A stretch of 51,474 nt of DNA from the sequence record MZ501090; one strand, written 5' to 3'. Both the position numbers and the translations under genes were made by a program. Shown here piece after piece: positions 2,091-49,320 of this stretch (the stretch's first letter is position 1; each line of letters begins with the position of its first letter). Source of the DNA: Escherichia phage KarlJaspers. Below the pieces are notes generated by a model that saw only the letters and a program-made list of their open reading frames with translations, made no database searches and was not told the DNA's origin.

Positions 2091-2106
2091 CACGAATCGA
2101 CAAACC
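2087..2106 (+). promoter_or_regulatory. conserved intergenic motif, variant copy (ATAGCACGAATCGACAAACC)
   Basis: Matches the repeated ATAGCAC...AAAC element; overlaps TerL stop TAG. Confidence 0.4.
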
Positions 2107-2120
2107 AATATATAATCAAA

Positions 2121-2146
2121 GGCTGGTAAATCCAGCCTTTTTTATT
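2121..2146 (+). terminator. rho-independent terminator
   Basis: GGCTGG-taaat-CCAGCC hairpin followed by TTTTTTATT. Confidence 0.75.
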
Positions 2147-2158
2147 GGAGGAAAGATA

Positions 2159-3439
2159 ATGAGTAAATCACGAATCGTTAAGGCTGATGGCTATAACGAG
2201 ATCTTTAAAGGCGAGAATTGCAAATCGCGAGTAGAGCAACCATTCTACATGCAATCAATGCCATACAAGACACTTGCTGACTTTTACGAAAAAGACGGCC
2301 TGGCAAAAAGGGTTATTGACGTAGTACCAGAGGAAATGGTTTCCCCTGGCTTCACGGTTGACGGCGTGGCAGACGAGGCAGCATTCCGTTCTTTGTGGGA
2401 TGAGAAGCGATTGAATGCAAAAATTATTGATGCGCTTTGCTGGTCGCGTTTGTTTGGCGGATCTGCAATCATTGCTCTTGTTCAGGATGGTCGGGCGCTC
2501 AAATCACCTGTAAAACCTGGTGCCATGCTGGAAGACGTGCGCGTTTACGATCGTTATCAGATTCGCGTTGAAGCGCGAGAAACAAATCCCCGCAAGGTTC
2601 GCTATGGTGAGCCAGTGCTTTACACTGTAACGCCAGGCGGAGACTTGCCGGAATACCAGGTACACTACACGCGCGTTTGCATTATCGACGGCGAGCGGAT
2701 ACCTAACGCAAAGCGACGCAGCAATGATGGCTGGGGTGAGTCAGTTCTTAACAAGCGACTTGTTGAGGCTATTGTTGATTATAACTATTGTGAAACATTG
2801 GCAACGCAATTATTGCGGCGGAAGCAACAGGCTGTATGGAAGGCTAAAGGACTCGCTGACTTGTGCGATGATGAGGAAGGTGTTAGCGCGGCACGCCTGA
2901 GACTTGCGCAGGTTGACGACGAGGGCGGTGTTGGCAAAGCAATTGGTATTGATGCTGAGGATGAGGAATATGATGTTCTTAATTCTGACATCAGCGGCGT
3001 TGATTCTTTCTTGGAAAAGAAAATGGATCGCATCGTTTCCCTTTCAGGTATTCATGAAATCATCCTGAAAAATAAAAACGTTGGCGGCGTTAGCGCAAGC
3101 CAAAACACGGCGCTTGAAACATTCTATAAGCTGATTGAACGAAAACGCATTGAGGATTACAAGCCTATCCTTGAATTTCTATTACCGTTCATCATTAGTG
3201 AGCAAGAGTGGAGCATTGAGTTTTCACCTTTGAGCGTACCTAGCGATAAAGATCAGGCTGAAATTCTGAATAAGAATATCGACTCAATCAGCAAGGCTAT
3301 TGATGGTCAGTTCCTTGATGTTGAAGAAGCGCGAGACACGTTGCGAGCAATCGCCCCAAGCGTTAAACTAAAGGACACTAATAAAATCAAGCTGCCGGAG
3401 CCAGCGGAGCCGGAGCCAGGCACACAGGGGAATGAGTAA
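2159..3439 (+). CDS. portal protein (putative)
   Basis: 426 aa ORF immediately after terminase; GGAGG RBS; acidic C-terminus; synteny. Confidence 0.65.
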   Translation: MSKSRIVKADGYNEIFKGENCKSRVEQPFYMQSMPYKTLADFYEKDGLAKRVIDVVPEEMVSPGFTVDGVADEAAFRSLWDEKRLNAKIIDALCWSRLFGGSAIIALVQDGRALKSPVKPGAMLEDVRVYDRYQIRVEARETNPRKVRYGEPVLYTVTPGGDLPEYQVHYTRVCIIDGERIPNAKRRSNDGWGESVLNKRLVEAIVDYNYCETLATQLLRRKQQAVWKAKGLADLCDDEEGVSAARLRLAQVDDEGGVGKAIGIDAEDEEYDVLNSDISGVDSFLEKKMDRIVSLSGIHEIILKNKNVGGVSASQNTALETFYKLIERKRIEDYKPILEFLLPFIISEQEWSIEFSPLSVPSDKDQAEILNKNIDSISKAIDGQFLDVEEARDTLRAIAPSVKLKDTNKIKLPEPAEPEPGTQGNE

Positions 3440-16040: not shown

Positions 16041-19000
16041 ATGGCTGAAAATATGATAACGGGCAGTAAGGGTGGATCATCAAAACCTTATGTGCCGAAA
16101 GAGATGGAAGATAACCTGATCTCAATCAACAAAATCAAAATCCTTCTTGCCGTTTCCGATGGTGAGTGCGATCCAGATTTCACGCTTCGCGATCTGTATC
16201 TCGATGATGTTCCGGTAATTGCAGATGATGGAACTGTTAACTATCAGGGTGTGAAAGCTGAATTTCGACCCGGAACGCAGACGCAAGATTACATCCAGGG
16301 GTTTACTGACACATCAAGCGAAGTGACGCTGGCGCGTGACATTACGACGACAAATCCTTATGTAATTTCCGTAACCAACAAAACATTATCGGCTATCAGA
16401 ATCAAAATGCTAATGCCAACAGGCATTAAGCAAGAGGATAACGGCGATCTTGTCGGCGTTAAGGTTACTTATGCTGTTGATATGGCTGTTGACGGAGACT
16501 CTTACAAAGAGGTATTGCTAGACACTATCGAAGGTAAAACGCGTTCCGGTTACGACAGAAGCCGGAGGATTGACCTTCCGGCATTTAATGATCGCGTATT
16601 ACTTAGGGTTAGAAGGGTTACGGCAGACAGCACATCTTCTCGTGTTACTGATCTGATTAAACTACAAAGTTACGCTGAGGTTATTGATGCAAAATTCCGT
16701 TATCCTCTGACTGGTCTTGTTTACGTTGAATTTGACAGCGAATTGTTCCCAAATCAGATCCCTAACATTTCAATCAAGAAGAAATGGAAGCTGATTAACG
16801 TTCCGAGTAACTACGATCCTGTTTTGAGAGAGTATCACGGTTCATGGGATGGAACATTCAAAAAAGCATGGTCAAATAATCCAGCATGGGTGCTTTATGA
16901 CATTATCACAAACCAGCGATATGGATTAGATCAGCGAGAGCTTGGTGTGCAGGTTGACAAATGGAGTCTTTACGAAGCGGCGCAATACTGCGATCAGAAA
17001 GTGCCGGACGGAAAAGGCGGCACAGAGCCGCGTTATCTATGCGACGTTGTGATTCAAAGCCAGATTGAGGCTTATCAGCTTATTCGTGATATTTGCTCAA
17101 TCTTCAGAGGCATGAGCTTTTGGAATGGAGAGAGCTTGTCAATCGTCATTGATAAGCCGCGCGATCCGTCGTACATCTTCACAAATGACAATGTTGTTGA
17201 TGGTGATTTTCAGTACACAACAGCAAGTGAAAAGAGCATGTACACGCAGTGCAACGTGACGTTCGATGACGAACAAAACATGTATCAACAGGACGTAGAG
17301 GGTGTATTCGACACAGAGGCCGCATTGCGATTTGGATACAATCCTACAAGCATAACCGCGATCGGATGTACACGCAGGAGTGAGGCTAATCGGCGCGGTC
17401 GATGGATACTAAAAACCAACTTGCGCAGCACTACGGTAAACTTTGCTACTGGACTGGAAGGCATGATCCCATCAATAGGTGATGTGATTGCTATTGCTGA
17501 CAATTTTCACAGCAGCAACCTTAAATTAAACCTATCAGGGCGCGTGATGGAAGTTTCCGGCTTGCAGGTGTTCGTTCCGTTTAAGATTGACGCGCGACCA
17601 GGTGATTTCATTATCATCAACAAGCCGGACGGAAAGCCAGTTAAGCGCACAATCTCAAAAGTAAGCGGTGACGGAAAAACCATTGAACTAAACATTGGGT
17701 TTGGGTTTGAAGTTAAACCTGACACGGTTTTTGCAATCGACCGCACTGATATTGCATTGCAGCAATACGTTGTAACGAGTATCGGCAAAGGTGATGATGA
17801 TGATGAATTTACATACTCCATCACGGCTGTTGAATATGACCCTAACAAATACGACGAGATTGATTATGGAGTAAACATTGACGACAGGCCAACTTCAATT
17901 GTCCAGCCTGACACAATGGCAGCGCCTGAAAATGTGCAAATATCCTCATACTCGCGAATTGTCCAGGGTGCAAGCGTTGAGACAATGGTTGTGTCGTGGG
18001 ATAAAGTACCTTACGCATCGCTGTATGAAATGCAATGGCGAAAAGGTGATGGCAACTGGCTGAATACACCACAGACCGCAAACAAAGAAATTGAGGTTGA
18101 AGGTATTTATTCAGGAAACTACCAGGTAAGGGTTAGATCTGTTTCCGCTTCAGGTTCTACGTCTCCGTGGTCCAGAATTGTGACAGCATCACTGACTGGT
18201 AAGGTAGGAGAGCCAGGCGCGCCAGTTAACTTAACCGCATCCGACAATGAAGTGTTTGGCATTCGTGTTAAGTGGGGGATGCCAGAAGGGAGCGGAGACA
18301 CGGCATACATTGAGCTTCATCAGTCGCCGGATGGAACGGCTGAAAACTCAAGCCTGCTAACGCTGATCCCGTATCCACAATATGAATACTGGCACGGTAC
18401 GCTTCCGGCTGGTCATGTTGTATGGTATCGGATCAGGAGCGTAGACAGGATCGGCAACGTTTCCGGTTGGACTGATTTTGTTAGAGGTATGGCTTCAGAT
18501 GATGTGGAGGCTGTTTTAGGAGATATTCTTGATAAGATTTTTGATACTGAAGCAGGTCAGGATCTTAAAGAGAACGCCATTGACAGTGCAAACAAGATAA
18601 AGGACCAGGCGCAAGCAATCATCCAGAATGCTCTTGCTAATGATGCTGATATTAAGTGGACGCGAGTACAAAATGGAAAGCGAAAGGCTGAATATGGTCA
18701 CGCGCTTGAGCTTATCGCCACAGAGACTGAGGCGCGAGTTACGCAGATTGAAGAATTGAGGGCGTCAATCGACGAGGATATTGTTTCAAGCATAAAGACA
18801 GTGCAGGAGGCTATCGCCACAGAATCTGAAACGCGAGCAACTCAAATAAATGCTTTGGATTCAAAATTCACAACTGAAATTGACGGTGTAAAACGCGATA
18901 CAGCCGCAAGCATTAATCAGGTTAATCAAACCATTGCCAATGAGTCAGAAGCGCGCGCGCAGGCCGTTAACGCGCTTGATGCGAAGTTCACAAAGGAGAT

Positions 19001-19619
19001 CGAAGATTTAAACGGAGTCATTAAGACTGAGGTTGAGGCTAACATCTCTGAAGTGAAACAGGCTATCGCTAACGAGACAGAGGCAAGGGTGCAGGCTGAC
19101 CAGGCGTTAACAGCTAAGTTTGGAGACGTTGAATCTGCATTAGCTCAAAAACTTGATTCGTGGGCTGGCGTTGATTCGGTTGGCGCTAAGTACGCCATGA
19201 AATTGGGCCTTACTTACAACGGGCAGAAGTACAGCGCAGGAATGGTAATGCAGCTTTCTCAGAGTTCATCCGGCCTTATCTCGCAAATTTTGTTTGATGC
19301 GAATAGGTTTGCGATTATGACTAGCTCGACTGGCGGAGTGTATACGCTGCCTTTCGTTGTTGAAAATAACCAGGTATTCATCAATAGCTTGTTAGTTAAA
19401 AACGGATCAATAAACAATGCGATGATCGGTAACTTCATCCAATCAAACAATTACGTTTGGAATCAAACAGGATGGAGGTTGGATAAAAACGGCACGTTTG
19501 AAAATTATGGTTCTACTCCTGGAGAGGGAGCCATGAAAATGACAAACGAAACGATCAGCGTTAGGGATGCAAACGGCGTTTTGCGTGTTCAGATTGGGCG
19601 TATCACAGGTTATTGGTAA
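16041..19619 (+). CDS. tail tip / host-specificity protein (lambda J-like)
   Basis: 1192 aa; position after M-L-K-I; central repetitive region and C-terminal coiled-coil repeats (TETEARxxQ...). Confidence 0.85.
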   Translation: MAENMITGSKGGSSKPYVPKEMEDNLISINKIKILLAVSDGECDPDFTLRDLYLDDVPVIADDGTVNYQGVKAEFRPGTQTQDYIQGFTDTSSEVTLARDITTTNPYVISVTNKTLSAIRIKMLMPTGIKQEDNGDLVGVKVTYAVDMAVDGDSYKEVLLDTIEGKTRSGYDRSRRIDLPAFNDRVLLRVRRVTADSTSSRVTDLIKLQSYAEVIDAKFRYPLTGLVYVEFDSELFPNQIPNISIKKKWKLINVPSNYDPVLREYHGSWDGTFKKAWSNNPAWVLYDIITNQRYGLDQRELGVQVDKWSLYEAAQYCDQKVPDGKGGTEPRYLCDVVIQSQIEAYQLIRDICSIFRGMSFWNGESLSIVIDKPRDPSYIFTNDNVVDGDFQYTTASEKSMYTQCNVTFDDEQNMYQQDVEGVFDTEAALRFGYNPTSITAIGCTRRSEANRRGRWILKTNLRSTTVNFATGLEGMIPSIGDVIAIADNFHSSNLKLNLSGRVMEVSGLQVFVPFKIDARPGDFIIINKPDGKPVKRTISKVSGDGKTIELNIGFGFEVKPDTVFAIDRTDIALQQYVVTSIGKGDDDDEFTYSITAVEYDPNKYDEIDYGVNIDDRPTSIVQPDTMAAPENVQISSYSRIVQGASVETMVVSWDKVPYASLYEMQWRKGDGNWLNTPQTANKEIEVEGIYSGNYQVRVRSVSASGSTSPWSRIVTASLTGKVGEPGAPVNLTASDNEVFGIRVKWGMPEGSGDTAYIELHQSPDGTAENSSLLTLIPYPQYEYWHGTLPAGHVVWYRIRSVDRIGNVSGWTDFVRGMASDDVEAVLGDILDKIFDTEAGQDLKENAIDSANKIKDQAQAIIQNALANDADIKWTRVQNGKRKAEYGHALELIATETEARVTQIEELRASIDEDIVSSIKTVQEAIATESETRATQINALDSKFTTEIDGVKRDTAASINQVNQTIANESEARAQAVNALDAKFTKEIEDLNGVIKTEVEANISEVKQAIANETEARVQADQALTAKFGDVESALAQKLDSWAGVDSVGAKYAMKLGLTYNGQKYSAGMVMQLSQSSSGLISQILFDANRFAIMTSSTGGVYTLPFVVENNQVFINSLLVKNGSINNAMIGNFIQSNNYVWNQTGWRLDKNGTFENYGSTPGEGAMKMTNETISVRDANGVLRVQIGRITGYW

Positions 19620-19625
19620 AAGCAA

Positions 19626-19653
19626 AGGGAGGCGCATTGCCTCCCTTTTTTTA
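19626..19653 (+). terminator. rho-independent terminator
   Basis: AGGGAGGC-gcatt-GCCTCCCT hairpin followed by TTTTTTT. Confidence 0.85.
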
Positions 19654-20310
19654 TTAGTCATATTTTGATGCGTCTATAGCAAGTATTGATGAAGAATAAT
19701 AAACCCCAAGCGGACCAGGCGTTTGAGCAACCTGCTTTGATATTGAGTAAATATTTGATCCAGATGCGCCGGATTGTGATTCAAATATCATGTGACCGCC
19801 AAGTTGAGGATTTGGAACGGAGTTTATTGCCGTTTGAAATGGCGTTACAGCGCATGTATAACCCAAATAAACATCAAATGTTATTCCGCTAACTGGTATT
19901 TGGTGAGCCTCTAAAGGCTTCATTTTTCCGTGGTATGTCATTTGACCAGCGGAATTATAAAACGCTATTCCGTGACTACCAGGACTTGTTACCATATCGC
20001 TAAAAGCGTAAACCCTAATCCATCCAGGGTTGTCCGTCCTATCAATCCTAAGTGCATGATAACCACCATTATTTATGTGAGAAAAAGCAGTGTATGCACG
20101 AGATCCCATTCTCACAAAGAAAAAGCATACACGATCAAATGGTATTGATGTTTGATAAATGGAGCCGTTATAAACCCCCATATCACCTCGATTAATTAAA
20201 TTCACAGGCGTAAAATCAGGACTTAGCCAAATTGACCCATCCGGCTTTGTGATCTGCATTCCGTACATGTTACCCCCAAAACGTATATATATATCTTGAC
20301 TCGCCAGCAT
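19654..20310 (-). CDS. hypothetical protein (C-terminal part of gene split at TA tract)
   Basis: 218 aa ORF; its first 41 nt overlap the upstream 94 aa ORF in another frame. Confidence 0.4.
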   Translation of the reverse strand: MLASQDIYIRFGGNMYGMQITKPDGSIWLSPDFTPVNLINRGDMGVYNGSIYQTSIPFDRVCFFFVRMGSRAYTAFSHINNGGYHALRIDRTDNPGWIRVYAFSDMVTSPGSHGIAFYNSAGQMTYHGKMKPLEAHQIPVSGITFDVYLGYTCAVTPFQTAINSVPNPQLGGHMIFESQSGASGSNIYSISKQVAQTPGPLGVYYSSSILAIDASKYD

Positions 20311-20554
20311 TAAGACCAGACCACGAAACAGTATTCCCGCTAACGTTTATTGTTGGTGCTCCCCAGTTAACTCCAGCCCACGTCTGCGTTCCAATATATC
20401 CAGCCTTTAATGTTTTTCCTGGCGGCTGATTGTAATATGTCTTGCTTCCTGATGGTTGTGTGAATCTATCCAGGAAGAATACAGGAGTTAATAAACCAGT
20501 AACATCCCTTCCTTGTTCGTCGTAAATTGCGTAACCGTATGCCATTATTTGCAC
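20270..20554 (-). CDS. hypothetical protein (N-terminal part of split gene)
   Basis: 94 aa ORF ending YIYTFWG encoded across (TA)5 tract at 20284-20294. Confidence 0.4.
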   Translation of the reverse strand: MQIMAYGYAIYDEQGRDVTGLLTPVFFLDRFTQPSGSKTYYNQPPGKTLKAGYIGTQTWAGVNWGAPTINVSGNTVSWSGLNAGESRYIYTFWG

Positions 20555-20814
20555 TCCACATAATCAAAATTATCCTCGCTTTGCCACCTGTGAACGAAAG
20601 TTACATATTTTTGTGATGGAGCTACGCGATAGTGTTTTTCACCGAATCTGTTTTCGCGCACAGCGTTTATTTTCACAGGATAGCTATCATTTACAGGGAA
20701 TGTTTTCACCATGTATGAGCCAACGCAATCAACCTCTTTATAGCCCCCATCCATTGACGCAGAACAACCAGTCAGGGCAACGGCGGCAATCAAAACGGCT
20801 ATTAACTTTTTCAT
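20545..20814 (-). CDS. outer-membrane lipoprotein, Cor-like superinfection exclusion (putative)
   Basis: 89 aa; signal peptide with lipobox LTGC; location after tail tip gene as for cor in T1/phi80-type phages. Confidence 0.5.
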   Translation of the reverse strand: MKKLIAVLIAAVALTGCSASMDGGYKEVDCVGSYMVKTFPVNDSYPVKINAVRENRFGEKHYRVAPSQKYVTFVHRWQSEDNFDYVECK

Positions 20815-20869
20815 TTTGGTGTCTCCTTAGTTGTTGTTGGTTGCAACTATACACGATCTTGCGGTGGGC

Positions 20870-20888
20870 GTTTAGCAAAAAGTGCCAT
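20870..20888 (-). promoter_or_regulatory. degenerate copy of conserved motif upstream of cor-like gene
   Basis: GTTTAGCAAAAAGTGCCAT; minus-strand TATAGT and AAGGAG RBS follow. Confidence 0.35.
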
Positions 20889-20959: not shown

Positions 20960-21130
20960 TAGAGCGATATACATACAGATAAATATATATACATACATAT
21001 AAATCAATAAGTTAGTAGTATATATATTTATATTTGTTCTTTATTGTTATCTATGTTTTGTGTGATTTTGTGTGTCTGGTGATTTTTCTGTGATTATGTA
21101 TGTGTCAGTGGTTGTGTGTGTCTATATATC
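20960..21130. repeat. AT/GT-rich non-coding island, copy 1 (homologous to 43100-43300)
   Basis: Shares about 48 bp core beginning AAATCAATAAGTTAGT plus GT-rich tracts with second island. Confidence 0.7.
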
Positions 21131-25947: not shown

Positions 25948-26625
25948 TTAAATGTTGTTATTTTTTATTGATTCAATTTGGCTTTTTAATTGCTCTATTT
26001 CTTCTTTCATCCGTTTCACATGATGAATTAGCGGAACAACCAAACGCTCATACATAACGCCTTCTGCAACCATGCCATTGCTTGAGGCGATTTCTGGATC
26101 ATCACCTTCTTGTAATGGCCTCCAGTGAACGTATTCAGACGCAATCTCTCCAACTTCTTCGGCGATCAGTCCATACCAACCCCAATCTTTTCTGTCATTC
26201 TCGCAAATCGACCGATACCAGACAGGACGCATGTCAAACATTCGATCTGCATATTCATCCATAACAGTTTCAACAGATCTTTTGTATCTTTCGGAAGACG
26301 TTGAACGAAGAACGCTTGACACTGCGGCATCTGGATTGAGATACAAGTTTGCGCCAGCGGTTGTTGTTCCAAGTCTAAAAAAGTAAACGGCCTCTTGTGC
26401 TGTTAATGGGTAAAAGTTTCCGCTATGTGTTCCGCCCTCTAATTCATTTGAAAGCTCGCTTTTCTTCATGTACGTCTTTAACTTGTTGTCAACGTCAGAG
26501 CTTGATGGCTTTGTGTTAACTTCTTGCTGCAACGTGGAAACATTGCCTTGCAACGTGGAAACATTGCCTTTTAAAGCAGTTATATCAGCCGGAATATTTG
26601 TTACGGTAGCCATGATTAAGCCCAC
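25948..26625 (-). CDS. tail fibre protein with C-terminal intramolecular chaperone-like domain (putative)
   Basis: 225 aa; tandem NVSTLQG repeat; C-terminal WGWYGLIAEEVGEI...ERLVVPLIHHVK resembles S74 chaperone domains. Confidence 0.5.
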   Translation of the reverse strand: MGLIMATVTNIPADITALKGNVSTLQGNVSTLQQEVNTKPSSSDVDNKLKTYMKKSELSNELEGGTHSGNFYPLTAQEAVYFFRLGTTTAGANLYLNPDAAVSSVLRSTSSERYKRSVETVMDEYADRMFDMRPVWYRSICENDRKDWGWYGLIAEEVGEIASEYVHWRPLQEGDDPEIASSNGMVAEGVMYERLVVPLIHHVKRMKEEIEQLKSQIESIKNNNI

Positions 26626-26894
26626 TCCCTAAGTTTTTGATCCGTCACAACGGTTCTGCTATTGAATAATTTCGCATCGTAATTATCATTAATGATGCGA
26701 GCGTTCACAAAATAACCATCATTTTTCTCTACAATTTCCTCTCCTTCTTCCGTTACAGATACAACAGTGTAAGTGTTCCCGATAACGTCGAGAAGAATTG
26801 CATCCTGAATGGATTCGTTTTCGTTCCATTCAATTTCTTCAAGAAAGGCAGAAAACTCTGCCTTGTCTGCAAATTTCAGTGTTAAATCTCTCAT
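26616..26894 (-). CDS. hypothetical protein (tail-fibre associated)
   Basis: 92 aa ORF coupled between two tail-fibre genes. Confidence 0.4.
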   Translation of the reverse strand: MRDLTLKFADKAEFSAFLEEIEWNENESIQDAILLDVIGNTYTVVSVTEEGEEIVEKNDGYFVNARIINDNYDAKLFNSRTVVTDQKLREWA

Positions 26895-28849
26895 TATACA
26901 ATTTCCCCCAATTGATGATCTGTTAATGCCTTATGCCAGATCCTAAAGTTTCTAATGTGTCCAAACAAATGGCGCTCTCCAGTTCCTGTTTGTCCGCCAA
27001 ACCTGATATTTTTATCTCCTGTTACGCCTATGTAATCGCAGTATGAATCAGACACTGCTATAGCATTGGTGACAACATGAAATTTGCCATCAGATTTTGC
27101 AATGCATCCAAAAGTGGATTTTTTTGCAAACACATCAGATGCCGCGCTATTAATATATGCCCCAGCAGGCGTTGATAAACTCATGTATAATTTTCCACTT
27201 CCTCTATTTATTGCCGCAATTGCTGATTGACCAGTATTTGCAGCAGCTATATCCCAAACACGAGGGGCAGAATTTGGAGCAACATCCCAACACTTACTAA
27301 CCTCAAGCAAAAAAGTAAACGGCAATTTATATAGGTTGTTTTTTGTTGGAATGCTAACAAGATCGCTAGCTCTCGTTGTTGGCATTGAAGTTATAATAAA
27401 TGACGATGCTGTATTTCCAAGTTCAATTTGCGGCGTAGCCATCGTTAACGTTGAATCAGAATAAAATGGTTCGTTGTTAATTTTATTAGTCATGTAAAAT
27501 GCACAATTAACAGTGTCAACATTTGTATTGGCTGTATATGTCGCTTGATAATACATCCATTCGCCATCCTGTTCCACTTTAGCGGTTATAAGTGAAGTGT
27601 CTCCACTTACCGATGCAACCAAAGTATCAAGATCCAAATAAGAATCAGCAGAAAATGTATCTACTCCATCAATAATTGTAGACACTCGAAGCCTGCATCT
27701 TGCTTTAGCACCTTTAACCCTACAAGAAAAGGTGAAACTTTCACCTGACACCAAAGGGAATCTATCGGCTGTAACAACTCCATGAACGGTATAACCTCCA
27801 GTAGTACCAACAATACTTTCTACAGGGGTGACTGTAGCGTAGTTAAAACCACGATCATCCGTTCCGAAAGTTTTATTTAAAGAAGAATGAATAGTCCAAG
27901 AATCTGTTTTATTTGAGTTTCTTAGATAGTTAGTTCTTTGCCCTTCGATTAAAAGACCTTCTTTTTCAAAACGAGGTTCGTCAATCTCCGCAACAGTCAA
28001 TACACCTGATTTGTTAATATAAGTTGCTGTTGAAGCGCGTGAAAATGTAACTACTTTATCTGTTGGCATAGTTATAACATCATTACCAACTGTTATTTTT
28101 TTGTAACCAGGTGCAAAGCCTGTAATCATCTCAAGAGAATCATTAAACGGTATCCACACGTCGGGCAGCGGTTGCAATAAATCTTTGTAAGGTTCTGCGG
28201 CCTGCCTTGCGTATTCCTCCGCTTGATCTCGCGCACTTTCAGCTCCTGCCTTTGCAGTGTTCGCAGCGTTACGCGCGGATTCAGCGCCAGACTTTGCTGT
28301 TTCAGCGCCAGTCTTTGCAGTGTTTGCAGCGTCGCGCGCGGATTCAGCAGCGGTCTTTGCAGTATCAGCGCCTTTCTTGCTGTTTTCTGCATTTGTTGCG
28401 CTTTTCTTCGCGTTATTCTCGCTAGTTTTAGCGGCCTTCTGGCTTGCTGCGGCCGCAGCAGCATCGCTCTTTACGTCAGCCTGTATCTGTTGAAGTTTAT
28501 CCCAATCAAATGTTTCGATGATCTCAATGAATCTGGCAAATTCAGTTTCTTTACCCTGGTAATATCGCAGTGTTTCAGCGACATCTTGCGCCAGGCCATC
28601 AACAGTTATTGAATCATGAAGCATGATCAGATAGTTTGTCTTTGCTACAACAGCGCCGCCAGTAGTAATGGCGCGAATGCTTGTGTCGCTAATAACCTCA
28701 GTGATTACAGCGGCTTGCATTGGATTTGTTAAGAAAAATATTGTTGCACCAGGGCGAATGAGTGTTAGCTGTTCGCGCCATTTTGTGCCGTATCCAGTTA
28801 TATAACCTTGCGCGTCCATTGACGCCTGTCCGGTTCTGTAAATTGCCAT
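26894..28849 (-). CDS. tail fibre protein (Ala-rich repeat shaft, lectin-like C-terminus)
   Basis: First ATG at 28849 with GGGAG RBS (track ORF starts TTG 28903); repeats AxTAKxGAESARxAANTAK; C-terminus RFGGQTG...NFRIW. Confidence 0.6.
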
Positions 28850-33724: not shown

Positions 33725-33985
33725 ATGCAGAAAGAAAGAAGAGTTGTACTTAATGAAGATGGCGAATTTCTTTTGTATCGCGCTATGGTATGCGATGCAC
33801 TTGATAAAAACCCTAACGTGAAAAAGATGATTGATTGCGATCCGTGGGAATTTTCAAGCGCATTAGATATGAGCTTTGAGGAGACAAAAAAACTCCCACT
33901 TGAAAAATGGCACGAACAAATCAGAAATGACATGCAAGAATTTGTCGATTCGTGGAATTTTCAGAACGGAATGATCCACCAATAG
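33725..33985 (+). CDS. hypothetical protein
   Basis: ATG 33725 after Dam stop; track ORF 33392-33985 upstream part overlaps Dam out of frame. Confidence 0.4.
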   Translation: MQKERRVVLNEDGEFLLYRAMVCDALDKNPNVKKMIDCDPWEFSSALDMSFEETKKLPLEKWHEQIRNDMQEFVDSWNFQNGMIHQ

Positions 33986-34001
33986 CACTTTTTGTTAAAA
34001 C
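33982..34001 (+). promoter_or_regulatory. conserved intergenic motif copy
   Basis: ATAGCACTTTTTGTTAAAAC overlapping stop TAG; GCCCGAC-cttgt-GTCGGGC hairpin then ATAATT. Confidence 0.6.
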
Positions 34002-36535: not shown

Positions 36536-36934
36536 ATGAGAAAGTTATCAGCAATCGCGATCGCTGTTATTTTGTCTGGATGTTCAAGCGTTACGCCACT
36601 GACCGGATTAATCGGTAGTAAGCCGGAAATCACAGCACAGGCAGGAGCGGAGAACGTAAAGCAGACCGTTGGCGTTACCGCAAAGCAGGACACCAGCACA
36701 AAACAGGAAACTACAATAAAGGAATCTGCGGTTGATAAGGTGGACACTTCCAGCAAGAAGGATTTCACTACGTCAACCATTCAGGCTAACACCATCAAGG
36801 CTGATAAAATCCAGGTTGTGCAGGGTGAGCAAAGTAAGTGGTACGATCCTATAATCTATTGCGCTGCAATTTTCAGTGGTCTTTTGTCAATGCTTTACTT
36901 TTCCTACCGCAAAGGCAACAAAAAGGAGGCTTAA
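36536..36934 (+). CDS. unimolecular spanin (lipoprotein with C-terminal TM)
   Basis: Lipobox ILSGCSS at N-terminus plus C-terminal TM helix; architecture as described for T1 gp11. Confidence 0.7.
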   Translation: MRKLSAIAIAVILSGCSSVTPLTGLIGSKPEITAQAGAENVKQTVGVTAKQDTSTKQETTIKESAVDKVDTSSKKDFTTSTIQANTIKADKIQVVQGEQSKWYDPIIYCAAIFSGLLSMLYFSYRKGNKKEA

Positions 36935-37226: not shown

Positions 37227-37246
37227 GTTTTAACAAAAAGTGCTAT
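37227..37246 (-). promoter_or_regulatory. conserved intergenic motif copy
   Basis: Minus strand ATAGCACTTTTTGTTAAAAC, then CCCGAT-ctcgt-ATCGGG hairpin and TATATT. Confidence 0.6.
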
Positions 37247-42834: not shown

Positions 42835-43099
42835 TTGCTGACTGGTCATTATTCCACATATTCCATTAATCAGGAATAACAGGAATAATTCATTCGCGAT
42901 CACCTGGATTGTGAGACTTTGAGTTTGATCAATTTTAATCAGTTGATTAACTTTTTGTGTGGAGGGGATAGAGAAATGCGGCCCTCTTGCATCCTTTCCG
43001 GCAATCCTGGCGCGCACATCTGTTATTTCTGTTCCCCGTGTTATCTCAAATAAGCCTCCGCACTTTTAGATAACAGAATCGGCGTTCATCAACAAAAAG

Positions 43100-43300
43100 A
43101 ACAAAATAAAATTTATATATATACCCATAAAATCAATAAGTTAGTTATATATGTATTTATATTTGTTATTTACTGTTGAGCTTGTTCTATTGGTATATGG
43201 TGGGGTGGTATTGTTTGTGGTGATATGTATGTGTGATTGTATATTTTTTAATCAATGGTGATGTGTGGTGATTTTTGTATGTATATATATGGGTATGGGG
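43100..43300. repeat. AT/GT-rich non-coding island, copy 2 (homologous to 20960-21130)
   Basis: Core AAATCAATAAGTTAGT at 43130-43145 plus GT-rich tracts (GGTGATTTTTGTATG). Confidence 0.7.
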
Positions 43301-43424: not shown

Positions 43425-43455
43425 TTGACATGCAGGAAGGGCAAGGCAATAATGC
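43425..43455 (+). promoter_or_regulatory. candidate promoter for rightward early operon
   Basis: TTGACA at 43425-43430; -10 assignment ambiguous (TAATGC at 19 nt). Confidence 0.3.
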
Positions 43456-43489: not shown

Positions 43490-43960
43490 ATGATCGAAGA
43501 AAATATTAGCACCATGTCGCGTAGTGAGTTCTGCGATATGCTTCGCGACCTGGGCGCGGCAATTGGTAGTGGTGAGCGTAATAATGTATTCATGCCAGCG
43601 CTTTTTTTGTGCGCTAATGTGGAGAACGGCGAAGCAATTACGGCATCGTACATGCGCCAGGTTGTCAACCGCGTACCTGAAGTAAAGCAAAAAGGCGTGA
43701 TCAGCATTAAGCGAAAGGTGACTGATGAGGGTGATGGCTTTGTGTTTGCGCTCACTGAAGCCAAAAGCAAACCTCGTGTTCTGACTGGGGATGATATAGC
43801 GAAACTTGAAATCAAGTGGCGAGCAAAGTTTATTGCTCAACTACTGAAAACACAGCCGCGAATCAGTGATCTGGAAGGTGAGCGCCTGGAGGGTGCGGCA
43901 ATCGCACTTGAGCGAATGAATGAAATGCTCAACGAGATGGTAAAGGTGGGGGATGAATAA
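43490..43960 (+). CDS. hypothetical early protein
   Basis: ATG 43490 with AAGGAG RBS (track start 43430 lacks RBS); 156 aa. Confidence 0.45.
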   Translation: MIEENISTMSRSEFCDMLRDLGAAIGSGERNNVFMPALFLCANVENGEAITASYMRQVVNRVPEVKQKGVISIKRKVTDEGDGFVFALTEAKSKPRVLTGDDIAKLEIKWRAKFIAQLLKTQPRISDLEGERLEGAAIALERMNEMLNEMVKVGDE

Positions 43961-44220
43961 TGAATAAGGCATTAATTGGAGTTTTGATTGCAATTGCTAC
44001 CCTGACCGGATGCGAAAAGGCATCTGAATCAACGGTAGTCGTAGGCGTGGAGTCAGATTTTAAAGTCGGTCGCCTGTTTACTGTTGATGGATGCACTGCG
44101 TACCGATTCTATGACAACGGTCGGGCAATCTATTACACCAATTGTAAGGGCGCAACGGATAGCACATACCGCAGCGGCAAAAACGTAATGCACCAACAAG
44201 TCACAACAGATATGAAATAG
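43960..44220 (+). CDS. early lipoprotein (possible exclusion protein)
   Basis: Signal peptide with lipobox LTGC; 86 aa. Confidence 0.5.
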   Translation: MNKALIGVLIAIATLTGCEKASESTVVVGVESDFKVGRLFTVDGCTAYRFYDNGRAIYYTNCKGATDSTYRSGKNVMHQQVTTDMK

Positions 44221-44236
44221 CACTTTTTGTTAAAAC
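44217..44236 (+). promoter_or_regulatory. conserved intergenic motif copy
   Basis: ATAGCACTTTTTGTTAAAAC overlapping stop; GCCAGG-tgcaaat-CCTGGC hairpin then ATAATA. Confidence 0.6.
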
Positions 44237-44777: not shown

Positions 44778-45668
44778 ATGTTAAAACTTGCTAACATTAA
44801 ATTCCCGATCACCTTCGAATCTCGCGGCGTTGGTCACTTCATGTTTTCCGACAAAAATACATGCACTAAGTTTAACGAATACGGAAAGCCTGATGTTTCA
44901 ACAATGGAGATTGAGCACCTCATTGATGCGCACAATAAGCACTACAACTCGCTTAAAGACTATGGCTACGCAATGCCAGGCTATACATGTTTTCACTACA
45001 AGCCATATAAGGGCCAGGTGTTACCAGTGCGCTCACCGGAACGCGCAGAGATTCCGATGGTCGAGATGAAAACCTGCGACTATAAAAAATTGTGGTGCTT
45101 AAGAGTGGATAACATCAAGTATCCGATCACGTTCTACACGGCTGGTAATTCAACGATTCGCTTCACATCGCGCGAAAATGGCGTTTATAGCGATGGTACG
45201 AAATCAGAGTTGAAAGTTGATTTCTTTGTCAATGGTCACAACAAATTCAATCCGCACAACGAAGAGGATAAGGTTTACTACGTGGAAGACATTACAAAAC
45301 ACTTGTTTGGAGATGCGCCAATTGGCGGCGGGAAGACGTCAATTCAGCAAATCATTGGCGAGGAGATCCACAAGGCAGCCGTTAAAATGAAAGCACCTGT
45401 AGGCTGGCGTATTGACAAGAGCGCCTTTGCATATCAAGAAATCGTAACGCAGGGCAAAATTGAAGATATGCCGCTTGGCGCTTCAATCATCGGCATCAGA
45501 GACAATAACGGCGACTGGAATGATGTTTCATTCCCTGTCAAGCGGATCGAGTTGCACGAAGACCTGATTTGCATCCTGGCGCATCATGGCAGCTATAAGG
45601 ACAAGCCATTCGCCGCCGAGCTTAACATCAAGCGCGGAACTATGGTTAAGTGGAAAGTCAAAGTGTAA
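44778..45668 (+). CDS. hypothetical protein with internal duplication
   Basis: 296 aa; NIKFPITFESRG (N-terminus) repeated as NIKYPITFYTAGN about 100 residues later. Confidence 0.45.
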   Translation: MLKLANIKFPITFESRGVGHFMFSDKNTCTKFNEYGKPDVSTMEIEHLIDAHNKHYNSLKDYGYAMPGYTCFHYKPYKGQVLPVRSPERAEIPMVEMKTCDYKKLWCLRVDNIKYPITFYTAGNSTIRFTSRENGVYSDGTKSELKVDFFVNGHNKFNPHNEEDKVYYVEDITKHLFGDAPIGGGKTSIQQIIGEEIHKAAVKMKAPVGWRIDKSAFAYQEIVTQGKIEDMPLGASIIGIRDNNGDWNDVSFPVKRIELHEDLICILAHHGSYKDKPFAAELNIKRGTMVKWKVKV

Positions 45669-48530: not shown

Positions 48531-48794
48531 ATGGTTTTTAATGCACTAAAACGAATCTTTAAACCTGAATACCGGATCGTTGCTTGCACAGAATGTAAGA
48601 TTTATTACCTGCAACGCCGCCGCGTTATTAGTGGGGATTGTGAATATCTAACTGATGATGCTTTCGGATTTTGGGCTATGGAGTTCAATAGCTACAGCGA
48701 AGCGCGTGAATACGCTAAAAAGTTGCACAAGTTCAGACCTTACAAGCTGCGTTTGCTGGTTGTCAAAAAATGCGATGTGTGGGATCACGAATGA
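48531..48794 (+). CDS. hypothetical protein
   Basis: 87 aa ORF. Confidence 0.35.
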   Translation: MVFNALKRIFKPEYRIVACTECKIYYLQRRRVISGDCEYLTDDAFGFWAMEFNSYSEAREYAKKLHKFRPYKLRLLVVKKCDVWDHE

Positions 48795-48970
48795 AAAGAG
48801 TAATTATCATTTTTATTGCCGTTATCGCTGGTTGTTACCTGGCTTATAATTATAGCGGCATTGTTGAGTCAATCGGCGGGTTGATTATCTTCATGGCTGG
48901 TGGGTATGCTGGCTATTGTGATGGATTCGAGAACGGAAAGCGTTACGTGCTGACCGGAAAAAAGAAGTAA
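48791..48970 (+). CDS. small membrane protein
   Basis: MKRVIIIFIAVIAGCYLAY and GGLIIFMAGGYAGY hydrophobic segments. Confidence 0.35.
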   Translation: MKRVIIIFIAVIAGCYLAYNYSGIVESIGGLIIFMAGGYAGYCDGFENGKRYVLTGKKK

Positions 48971-49013: not shown

Positions 49014-49301
49014 ATGGCTAAAAGCAATCGTAAAATGTTGATTAACGCATTCGAAAAGGAAGCGCTTGAGCGTGGTTGGAATGACTCATTTCACACAGCA
49101 AACTGTATCCGCCGTTACGGATTCAAGGATTGCCGATCCTGGGCGCGTCAAATGGCTTCATGGTATGATCTTGATGCGCATTACCTTGATATGGATTGCG
49201 CCCTGGTTGAAATGATTGAGCAGGCCGCACTAGAGGATCGACCATTAACGCAATCTGATTTTGACGATTTTGTGCGCGATGAAATCTATTACATGAGCTA
49301 A
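49014..49301 (+). CDS. hypothetical protein
   Basis: ATG 49014 with AAAGGAGGAAA RBS; 95 aa. Confidence 0.45.
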   Translation: MAKSNRKMLINAFEKEALERGWNDSFHTANCIRRYGFKDCRSWARQMASWYDLDAHYLDMDCALVEMIEQAALEDRPLTQSDFDDFVRDEIYYMS

Positions 49302-49320
49302 TAGCACTTTTTGTTAAAAC
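49301..49320 (+). promoter_or_regulatory. conserved intergenic motif copy
   Basis: ATAGCACTTTTTGTTAAAAC overlapping stop TAA. Confidence 0.55.

Follow-up and report, generated by a model that had tools for sequence, protein, structure and literature searches.

The window analysed here is the whole 51,474-nt stretch of sequence record MZ501090, from Escherichia phage KarlJaspers (Bas06). It belongs to Hanrivervirus (Drexlerviridae) and is a T1-like coliphage, and its terminal receptor is recorded as BtuB (BASEL phage table, supplementary file 5). Positions 20545–20814 encode, on the minus strand, an 89-aa Cor/Llp-like lipoprotein (lipoprotein 1), a putative BtuB-directed superinfection-exclusion protein. 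Its N-terminus reads MKKLIAVLIAAVALTGC, and the protein scores 21.2 bits against the Pfam model LPAM_1 (cut-off 20). The lipid-bearing cysteine would be Cys17, with Ser at position +2, and two further cysteines, Cys30 and Cys88, are invariant in the family. A ribosome-binding site, AAGGAG, lies 8 nt upstream. The gene is kept across 82 phage records, and Hanrivervirus phiE31-2 has a locus with 99% identity to this one.

Lipoprotein 1 heads an operon of three genes that converges with the gene for the J-like tail tip protein, gpJ (16041–19619, plus strand); a hairpin terminator at 19624–19648 separates the two. The second gene (20270–20545, minus strand), whose ATG overlaps the lipoprotein 1 stop codon (TAATG), encodes a 91-aa protein assigned to PHROG 557, ‘outer membrane protein’. 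The third (19654–20268, minus strand) encodes a 204-aa member of PHROG 425, a probable receptor-binding protein (RBP). Neither of these RBP-locus proteins matched a family in an NCBIfam search. On the other side of the operon, an element at 20846–20888 (minus strand), 32 nt upstream of where lipoprotein 1 starts, consists of the T1-like 21-nt intergenic repeat (PMC11447400), ATGGCACTTTTTGCTAAA..., followed by a -10-like TATAGT. Elsewhere this repeat is situated mostly between non-structural genes. A scan for sigma-70 promoters in front of lipoprotein 1 gave no minus-strand site. The sequence-only reading had called lipoprotein 1 late; this is doubtful because the gene has an upstream region of its own with the 21-nt repeat. 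It also lies on the strand opposite to the tail genes and behind the hairpin terminator, and the label is unsupported.

A lipobox scan over all ORFs of the window gave as lipoprotein candidates 20545–20814, 43960–44220 and 36536–36934. The second of these, lipoprotein 2, is 86 aa long and is described below. The last (plus strand, 132 aa) is the window's third lipoprotein, the u-spanin: it matches PHROG 1804 (Rz-like spanin) with E=3e-49, its JakobBernoulli counterpart is annotated as u-spanin, and it stands outside the systems of both other lipoproteins. There is a further lipobox-like match in a 59-aa hydrophobic ORF at 48791–48970, but this ORF is more suggestive of a small membrane protein than of a lipoprotein. 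Lipoproteins 1 and 2 are real genes, as their ribosome-binding site or coupled start, their conservation and their invariant cysteines attest.

When the two signal peptides are aligned at the lipid cysteine, 11 of 16 residues are identical, which is above the level typical of unrelated lipoprotein signal peptides (mean about 4–5 of 16). The mature domains are unrelated, since BLASTP aligns those 16 residues only. Different codons are used at 6 of the 11 identical residues, so nothing points to a recent exchange of DNA between the signal peptides. We therefore rejected the idea that the two proteins are paralogues or the product of a recent signal-peptide swap: only 16 residues align, and synonymous sites differ. 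The original observation, namely two small lipoproteins with similar signal peptides that are distinct from the spanin lipoprotein, is borne out on each point, as both ORFs and both lipoboxes are present and the u-spanin is a separate ORF.

The cassette and its exchange between phages

Comparison with relatives of known receptor specificity showed that the three cassette proteins change together. Against the BtuB-dependent phage FritzSarasin (Bas04), lipoprotein 1 is 57% identical, the 91-aa protein 70% and the 204-aa protein 66%. Against the FhuA-dependent phages JakobBernoulli (Bas07) and T1, the corresponding figures are 35–36% for lipoprotein 1, no significant similarity for the 91-aa protein, and about 20–23% for the 204-aa protein, which is a homologue of T1 gp31 and of a Bas07 protein. 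Lipoprotein 1 and both RBP-locus proteins thus switch jointly between BtuB-type and FhuA-type phages. Gene order differs as well: in the FhuA type J, gp32 and gp31 are read in one direction and cor in the other, whereas in the window and in Bas04 J is followed by the genes for the 204-aa protein, the 91-aa protein and the lipoprotein, all facing it. The C-terminal part of gpJ, from about 18841 onward, also diverges from the FhuA-type relative.

The edges of the swapped module are sharp. Homology with FhuA-type genomes ends at 19649 and returns at 20764, in the Cys17 codon, placing the left edge at approximately 19649 and the right edge 0–3 nt from that codon. The stretch that encodes the signal peptide of lipoprotein 1 (codons 1–17; 20764–20814, minus strand) accordingly belongs to the conserved backbone. 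A junction at the lipobox cysteine codon recurs in two further phage pairs. This position shows how such phages swap receptor binding and self-exclusion together, leaving export signal and upstream region in place.

The region downstream of gpJ is where cognate superinfection-exclusion lipoproteins are encoded (PMC8594841, PMC9586334), and BtuB-dependent Tempevirinae have Cor-like proteins (PMC13164509). Warwickviruses with the window's lipoprotein 1 allele are reported as not FhuA-dependent (PMC10373560). The cassette is found, too, in an E. coli prophage, at whose end it adjoins host genes. The lipoprotein 1 locus is a known exchangeable cassette with an RBP and a superinfection-exclusion protein and, by its sequence affinities, is the BtuB-associated allele, replaced in FhuA-dependent phages. 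Earlier work on this phage group has described the cassette locus together with its putative exclusion proteins, and their presence here will not surprise specialists.

The lipoprotein 1 family and its similarity to Cor

A deep profile search with lipoprotein 1 gave only 31 representative clusters, 27 of which were retrieved. The family members are mostly 82–108 aa long, and a lipobox is present in all 27 retrieved sequences. In an alignment of 29 sequences (these 27, the window's lipoprotein 1 and one closer homologue), the lipid cysteine and two further cysteines, corresponding to Cys30 and Cys88 of the window protein, are invariant; 21 of the 29 match PHROG 1119 (Cor).

Full-length lipoprotein 1 itself matches PHROG 1119 with E=4e-11, and a full-length hhalign comparison with the Cor of T1 and Bas07 gives a probability of 98% with both cysteines aligned. 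When the signal peptide is removed, the PHROG 1119 match of the mature domain falls to E=0.028, and the mature-domain hhalign comparison gives a probability of 50% (E=1.7e-4, 21% identity), again with both cysteines aligned. As a gauge of what a signal peptide can contribute, the unrelated u-spanin also matches PHROG 1119 (E=4e-5), by virtue of its signal peptide. Against the NCBIfam Cor equivalog NF047972, lipoprotein 1 scores 19.5 bits, under the cut-off of 31. The database similarity to Cor thus seems to come largely from the signal peptide, and similarity of the mature domain appears marginal.

In a Foldseek search of BFVD with the lipoprotein 1 model, the best matches were lipoproteins of Providencia and Proteus phages, with E-values of 2e-5 to 1.6e-4 (TM 0.54–0.67) that may be inflated because the alignments take in the signal peptide. 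The same listing includes the ‘receptor-blocking protein’ of Yersinia phage phiR2-01; we take this phage and the Providencia and Proteus phages to be T5-like. Against the PDB, Foldseek returned nothing at E<=0.001, and the solved Llp fold was not matched. PDB sequence searches with a Cor-like profile, with the single window protein and with T1 Cor gave chance matches only, Llp not being among them.

Lipoprotein 2 and its surroundings

Lipoprotein 2 (43960–44220, plus strand) is a DUF4884-type protein with the N-terminus MNKALIGVLIAIATLTGC, a predicted lipid Cys18 with Glu at +2, invariant Cys45 and Cys62, and the conserved core RLFTVDGCTAYRFxDxGRxIYYTNC. It is kept in 119 phage records. Its score against PF16225 (DUF4884) is 24.5 bits, under the Pfam cut-off of 30, and precomputed PF16225 assignments are found in 38 of 38 database homologues. 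The match to PHROG 6360 has E=1e-11 at full length and 1e-5 for the mature domain alone; rtp3 of phage Rtp (DUF4884/PHROG 6360) is 56% identical. No NCBIfam family was matched, and the literature searched reports no function for DUF4884 proteins. The lipoprotein 2 model is poor (pLDDT 66) and matched neither Llp nor any other solved structure.

The start codon overlaps the stop of an upstream DUF7174 gene (TAATG; 43490–43960, plus strand), whose probable start is 43490, with the frame open back to 43430. A sigma-70-like site, TTGACA-17-AATAAT (11/12; 43425–43453, plus strand), lies 37 nt upstream of this operon. Promoter calls are only suggestive, because matches of at least 11/12 are no commoner across the whole window than in shuffled sequence. 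The two genes are co-translated, probably from an immediate-early host-type promoter. That lipoprotein 2 is early, as had been proposed, is therefore plausible, given its place in a region of small early ORFs and the near-consensus site.

The distribution of lipoprotein 2 differs from that of the cassette. It is 97.7% identical in Bas07, 98.8% in JLBYU41 and 90.7% in PeterMerian, all FhuA-dependent, and Bas07 departs from the window in its receptor cassette as well as in its lateral-fibre locus. BtuB-type phages, in turn, carry either the window's allele or one about 45% identical to it. Homologues are found in Rtp and in phages of Pantoea, Pseudomonas, Serratia, Erwinia and Xanthomonas, and in every case small early ORFs surround them; the core is highly conserved across these phages of distant hosts, and the tether and C-terminus vary. 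T1 has no homologue, and a scan of 185,579 bacterial genomes confirmed no relatives. No RBP gene adjoins the lipoprotein 2 gene in the window or in the other phage contexts examined. We considered a 296-aa ORF at 44778–45668 as a possible RBP partner and rejected it, because its PHROG matches are all of unknown function and Pfam gave none. A related record annotates the counterpart of this ORF as ‘tail fiber’.

Function and comparison with known exclusion proteins

We consider it probable that lipoprotein 1 is the exclusion protein of a BtuB-allele cassette and that lipoprotein 2 is an unrelated DUF4884-type protein acting on a conserved envelope component. By analogy with the action of T5 Llp on FhuA, lipoprotein 1 most likely masks BtuB, approaching it from the periplasm. 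It would be exported and lipidated at Cys17, and its 72-residue beta-rich domain would be stapled by a Cys30–Cys88 disulfide. Attachment to BtuB's periplasmic face would hold the receptor in a state that the RBP no longer recognises. Such masking would prevent superinfection and spare progeny from being lost on cell debris. For lipoprotein 2, independence of the receptor and fibre modules together with conservation in phages of distant hosts suggests that its target is most likely a conserved envelope component rather than a receptor.

Two other accounts of lipoprotein 1 were weighed. That it is a classical Cor, inactivating FhuA as in T1, phi80 and N15, would explain the full-length PHROG 1119 match (E=4e-11), the aligned cysteine pair, and also the signal peptide and genomic slot held in common with cor of T1 and Bas07. 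The mature domain, however, is only about 21% identical and the protein scores under the NCBIfam cut-off; the whole cassette matches that of BtuB-dependent FritzSarasin and not those of FhuA phages; and KarlJaspers is recorded as BtuB-dependent, while Warwickviruses with this allele do not depend on FhuA. We regard this account as highly improbable. Alternatively, lipoprotein 1 might be no exclusion factor at all and instead be needed to make or attach the receptor-binding proteins with which it is co-transcribed and coupled in translation. It does head one operon with two RBP-locus genes, in which stop and start codons overlap, and in FhuA-type phages cor is transcribed separately. Yet an exported, lipid-anchored periplasmic protein could hardly act on virion assembly in the cytoplasm, the same signal peptide and slot hold a proven type of exclusion protein in relatives, and the end of an E. 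coli prophage, beside host genes, is a place where an exclusion gene makes sense. A role in RBP assembly is thus very unlikely. The earlier description of lipoprotein 1 as Cor-like stands as regards slot, size and cysteine pair, and needs qualifying in that the allele is BtuB-associated and its similarity to Cor lies largely in the signal peptide.

If both proteins were receptor blockers, lipoprotein 2 would mask a second receptor (e.g. a TonB-dependent transporter) or else the primary one. It resembles Llp, Cor and Rtp45 in its lipobox, the lack of Asp at +2, its two invariant cysteines and a small mature domain modelled as beta-rich, and it is probably expressed early. Against this, it never adjoins an RBP gene, it stays near-identical where receptor cassette and lateral fibres differ, and one and the same BtuB-type cassette accompanies either of its two allele groups. 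Its core motif is moreover kept in Pseudomonas, Xanthomonas, Serratia and Pantoea phages, and these hosts would not be expected to have a variable surface receptor in common with E. coli. We consider a second blocker unlikely. The proposal that such lipoproteins mediate receptor blocking is thus retained for lipoprotein 1, on account of its cassette and Cor/Llp-type architecture, and is unsupported for lipoprotein 2, which has no RBP neighbour and does not co-vary with the receptor. Its extension, that two proteins point to two receptors, finds no positive support; its other branch, two stages, is possible.

It is possible, though we do not favour it, that lipoprotein 2 acts at a different conserved envelope stage, such as passage of DNA through the periplasm, cell-wall enzymes or the timing of lysis; in that event it might shut out heterologous phages or condition the envelope and leave receptors alone. 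Conservation of the core across distant hosts, a place in the early region behind a near-consensus host-type promoter and independence of the receptor modules are all consistent with this, whereas the low-confidence model with no fold match, the lack of a homologue in bacterial genomes and the absence of the gene from T1 count against it. More ambitiously, lipoprotein 2 might found a new class of early lipoproteins, spread over unrelated phages of Escherichia, Serratia, Pantoea, Pseudomonas and Xanthomonas, that targets a conserved periplasmic or outer-membrane machine and blocks rivals after adsorption or conditions the envelope, so providing receptor-independent exclusion beside the Cor-like protein; we hold this to be doubtful. 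As the family is widespread, a simple expression test could assign its function.

The preferred reading of lipoprotein 1, as a BtuB-directed exclusion protein, has wider implications. If it masks BtuB, exclusion by periplasmic “reverse allostery” would reach a third receptor, after FhuA and LptD, and a small portable tool would become available for making cells resistant to BtuB-dependent phages and colicins. We infer BtuB binding and an exclusion phenotype by analogy with the T5 Llp–FhuA and Rtp45–LptDE pairs.

Among known systems, Cor (T1, phi80, N15, HK022; FhuA-directed) holds the same slot beside the RBP genes downstream of gpJ. Its signal peptide is nearly that of lipoprotein 1 (MKKLI..LTGC), the two proteins are similar in size and predicted to be all-beta, and they align in a pair of cysteines, one close to each end of the mature domain. 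Lipoprotein 1 differs in being 14 residues longer, in a mature domain only about 21% identical, and in sharing a transcript with the RBP genes, which run opposite to J, whereas the FhuA-type cor is a separate transcript; furthermore, it travels with BtuB specificity and Cor with FhuA specificity. Rtp45, whose complex with LptDE has been solved by cryo-EM, is likewise a small lipoprotein; it contains an intramolecular disulfide and binds its receptor on the periplasmic side (10.1101/2025.07.07.663478). No sequence relationship between the two was detected and both the receptor, LptD, and the RBP family differ, but the cassette position downstream of gpJ is the same and both phages are Drexlerviridae. 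T5 Llp, known from its complex with FhuA (PDB 8A60), comes from another phage family and its target differs from BtuB, the probable target of lipoprotein 1. It is a small outer-membrane lipoprotein whose gene, like that of lipoprotein 1, adjoins an RBP gene. In Llp a disulfide, Cys11–Cys58, constrains the termini (PMC9586334), and the invariant Cys30 and Cys88 of lipoprotein 1 are a candidate pair for a comparable bond.

Lipobox ORFs and the Cor match

A lipobox scan covering every ORF in the window returned lipoprotein 1 (20545-20814, minus strand, 89 aa, N-terminus MKKLIAVLIAAVALTGC), lipoprotein 2 (43960-44220, plus strand, 86 aa, N-terminus MNKALIGVLIAIATLTGC), a 132-aa ORF at 36536-36934 and a lipobox-like ORF at 48791-48970. 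The first two agree with the sequence-only reading in coordinates, lengths and signal-peptide starts; ribosome-binding sites precede both genes, which occur in 82 and 119 phage records, respectively. The third lipobox ORF matches an Rz-like spanin PHROG (E=3e-49), and the equivalent ORF of a close relative is annotated as u-spanin. The 59-aa ORF at 48791-48970 (plus strand, N-terminus MKRVIIIFIAVIAGC; PHROG 14912, unknown function) is also hydrophobic past its lipobox-like start, and probably encodes not a fourth lipoprotein but a small membrane protein. With the lipid cysteines superimposed, the signal peptides of lipoproteins 1 and 2 share 11 of 16 residues, where those of unrelated lipoproteins share ~4-5 of 16 on average, bearing out their proposed similarity. 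Since BLASTP of the two proteins gave no alignment past these 16 residues and the codons differ at six of the 11 identical positions, the likeness is confined to the protein level, and the two mature domains are not related.

Lipoprotein 1 had been called Cor-like. At full length it matches PHROG 1119 (Cor) with E=4e-11, and a profile-profile comparison with the T1/Bas07 Cor gave 98% probability with both cysteines aligned. However, PHROG 1119 is matched by the unrelated u-spanin as well (4e-5), the mature domain of lipoprotein 1 alone yields only E=0.028 against PHROG 1119 and 50% probability against Cor in hhalign (E=1.7e-4, 21% identity), and the NCBIfam Cor equivalog model scores 19.5 bits, under its 31-bit cut-off. 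The Cor match therefore stems largely from the signal peptide. The remaining similarity between mature domain and Cor is about that reported for the T5 protein Llp versus Cor (~20%, disulfide included; PMC9586334).

When 1.84 billion representative proteins were searched exhaustively with a profile, only 31 clusters emerged, mostly of 82-108 aa. A lipobox is present in 27/27 retrieved family proteins, the lipid cysteine, Cys30 and Cys88 are invariant in the family alignment, and 21 of 29 aligned sequences match PHROG 1119. The AlphaFold model (mean pLDDT 77) is all-beta in its mature part (78-89). Foldseek found no match to it in the PDB; the best BFVD matches were Providencia and Proteus phage lipoproteins (E 2e-5 to 1.6e-4, TM 0.54-0.67), along with a 'receptor-blocking protein' of Yersinia phage phiR2-01 (E=0.018), to be read with caution as the alignments contain the signal peptide. 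These phages are T5-like. We therefore class lipoprotein 1 among the receptor-masking lipoproteins of Cor/Llp type, as a divergent member and without treating it as a Cor equivalog.

The receptor cassette

Lipoprotein 1 heads a tight three-gene operon on the minus strand, which converges on gpJ (16041-19619) across a hairpin at 19624-19648. The 91-aa gene (20545 to 20270, minus strand; PHROG 557) has an ATG overlapping the lipoprotein 1 stop codon (TAATG), and the 204-aa gene (20268 to 19654, minus strand; PHROG 425) follows; the PHROG names of these two proteins are those of T1 gp32 and gp31. The locus downstream of gpJ is known to carry receptor-binding proteins (RBPs) and cognate superinfection-exclusion proteins, with alleles that match the terminal receptor (PMC8594841; bioRxiv 10.64898/2026.04.02.716166; PMC13164509). 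KarlJaspers/Bas06 (MZ501090) is a Hanrivervirus with BtuB as terminal receptor (BASEL phage table, supplementary file 5), and around lipoprotein 1 the window shows 99% identity to Hanrivervirus phiE31-2 (Drexlerviridae, Tempevirinae).

The alleles sort by receptor. Compared with BtuB-dependent FritzSarasin/Bas04, lipoprotein 1 and the 91-aa and 204-aa proteins show 57%, 70% and 66% identity; compared with FhuA-dependent JakobBernoulli/Bas07 and T1, lipoprotein 1 is 35-36% identical, mostly in the signal peptide, the 91-aa protein has no significant match and the 204-aa protein is about 20-23% identical. Gene order differs as well, being J> gp32> gp31> <cor in FhuA-type phages and J> <204 <91 <lipoprotein in BtuB-type phages, the window included. 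The Warwickviruses JLBYU01, 10, 16 and 19, reported as FhuA-independent (PMC10373560), carry the same lipoprotein 1 allele. The same BtuB-type cassette (93, 92 and 204 aa) is also found at an E. coli prophage end (GCA_024611435.1, contig DAILGH010000013.1, 6001-7169), convergent with a gpJ gene and beside genes that share their Pfam families with the abg operon of the host, which parallels the FhuA-type cor of lambdoid phages. A gene with a Peptidase_S74 domain, typical of tail fibres, adjoins it. About 20 'Campylobacter phage' records (MG065636-MG065681, host C. jejuni) are ~95% identical to the window across the locus and are probably mislabelled or contaminant phages.

The window is colinear with Bas07 (gpJ starts at 16041 and 16040, respectively), and homology between them ends at 19649, right after the gpJ terminator, to restart at 20764, the last base of the lipoprotein 1 Cys17 codon. 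In the BtuB-versus-FhuA comparisons of the window and of FritzSarasin with PeterMerian the junction lies 0-3 nt from this codon, while the BtuB-type pair of window and FritzSarasin aligns without a break through the cassette. These junctions indicate that the mature exclusion domain is exchanged together with the RBP genes as one unit. The signal peptide and the region upstream of the gene are part of the conserved backbone, which also accounts for the MKKLI...LTGC signal peptide being common to all Cor alleles; its coding sequence seems to act as a constant flank in cassette swapping. Towards its C-terminus the J-like protein has no homology to Bas07 over 18841-19060, with 84% identity over 19060-19649 and 96% upstream, in keeping with reported co-variation between GpJ tip and RBP type.

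Expression of the two operons

Upstream of the lipoprotein 1 operon lies one copy of the 21-nt intergenic repeat of T1-like phages (consensus aaATAGCACnnnTTGnTAAAA), the function of which has been posed as a question for these phages (PMC11447400). The window holds about 20-21 copies (ATAGCACnnnTTGnTAAA) against 0.7 expected by chance, for example at 20871-20888(-), 33982-33999(+), 37229-37246(-), 44217-44234(+) and 49301-49318(+), mostly between non-structural genes and oriented with transcription. The ten best copies are followed by 14-15 nt, often forming a small hairpin or inverted repeat, then by a -10-like hexamer at fixed distance (CATAAT, TATATT or TATAGT) and a gene start. At 44217-44234 the TAG of the repeat is the lipoprotein 2 stop codon, and at several other copies it appears to be the stop of the preceding gene. 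The label 'late' finds no support for lipoprotein 1, whose operon lies on the strand opposite the tail genes and has its own upstream repeat copy; since the RBP genes share its transcript, the operon must also be expressed during virion assembly.

The label 'early' for lipoprotein 2 is plausible. Its gene forms a bicistron with a DUF7174 gene, stop and start codons overlapping, that opens a long rightward block of small ORFs, just as rtp1-rtp3 at the left end of Rtp form the first unit of such a block. A TTGACA-17-AATAAT site lies 37 nt upstream of the probable DUF7174 start at 43490, but is only suggestive, as promoter matches of at least 11/12 are not commoner in the window than in shuffled sequence. 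The divergent intergenic regions upstream of the two operons (20960-21130 and 43090-43300) share ~150 nt in the same orientation, with a 48-nt core (21001-21048 and 43130-43177, 90% identity) bordered by an AT-rich ATATACATA block and direct repeats resembling GTGATTTTGTGTGTCT; the shared stretch may stem from duplication of a regulatory or origin-like region. Further along, the 296-aa ORF at 44778-45668(+) has two stretches of similarity to PHROG 7116 (unknown function), perhaps through an internal duplication; the 'tail fiber protein' annotation of a closely related record found no backing in any Pfam family or functionally annotated PHROG.

Lipoprotein 2 and the proposed roles

Lipoprotein 2 matches PHROG 6360 (E=1e-11 at full length, 1e-5 for the mature domain alone) and, at 24.5 bits, falls under the threshold of 30 for Pfam DUF4884; PF16225 is carried by 38/38 of its database homologues. 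In their alignment the tether and the C-terminus vary, and the core between them (RLFTVDGCTAYRFxDxGRxIYYTNC) is nearly invariant and contains two cysteines that never change. Among the phages with a homologue are a Pantoea siphovirus (49% identity), Pseudomonas phage Dolphis (56%), Serratia phage MTx (37%) and phages of Erwinia and Xanthomonas, while a scan of bacterial genomes confirmed none. Phage T1 is without a DUF4884 lipoprotein gene; its early left arm encodes an unrelated 57-aa lipobox protein, ST72 (2099-2272, plus strand). In these phages, small early lipoproteins may be accessories that recur but can replace one another.

The sequence-only reading suggested receptor blocking for both lipoproteins, at two receptors or two stages. 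The distribution of lipoprotein 2 argues against a second receptor: it is 97.7% identical in Bas07 even though the two phages differ at the receptor cassette (19649-20764) and the lateral-fibre locus (25960-28544), and in the contexts examined its homologues always lie among small ORFs, never adjoining an RBP gene. Identity is 98.8% in JLBYU41 and 90.7% in PeterMerian, both FhuA-dependent, and phages with a BtuB-type cassette have either the allele of the window or one ~45% identical. Rtp and JeanPiccard carry a 56% identical allele; AugustePiccard and JeanPiccard are LptD-dependent, and the RBP locus of Rtp is the same allele as that of AugustePiccard (PMC8594841). By these comparisons lipoprotein 2 follows no host-recognition module. 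Such independence, together with conservation in phages of distant hosts, leads us to argue for a separate early lipoprotein with a conserved envelope target; it may also act in exclusion at another stage.

Receptor blocking holds up better for lipoprotein 1, which has the architecture of an exclusion lipoprotein and is co-inherited with the BtuB-type receptor module. The locus type, putative exclusion lipoproteins and Cor-like proteins in BtuB-dependent Tempevirinae were already known (PMC13164509; PMC8594841; PMC9586334). Added here are the reassignment of lipoprotein 1 to BtuB, the largely signal-peptide-driven nature of database 'Cor' matches, the placing of the cassette junction at the lipobox codon and the absence of co-variation between lipoprotein 2 and the receptor modules. 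The best-supported reading is that lipoprotein 1 is a self-exclusion protein matched to the phage's receptor BtuB, with BtuB binding and an exclusion phenotype inferred by analogy. It would act on BtuB from the periplasmic face, as has been shown structurally for Llp on FhuA (PMC9586334) and for Rtp45 on LptDE (10.1101/2025.07.07.663478).
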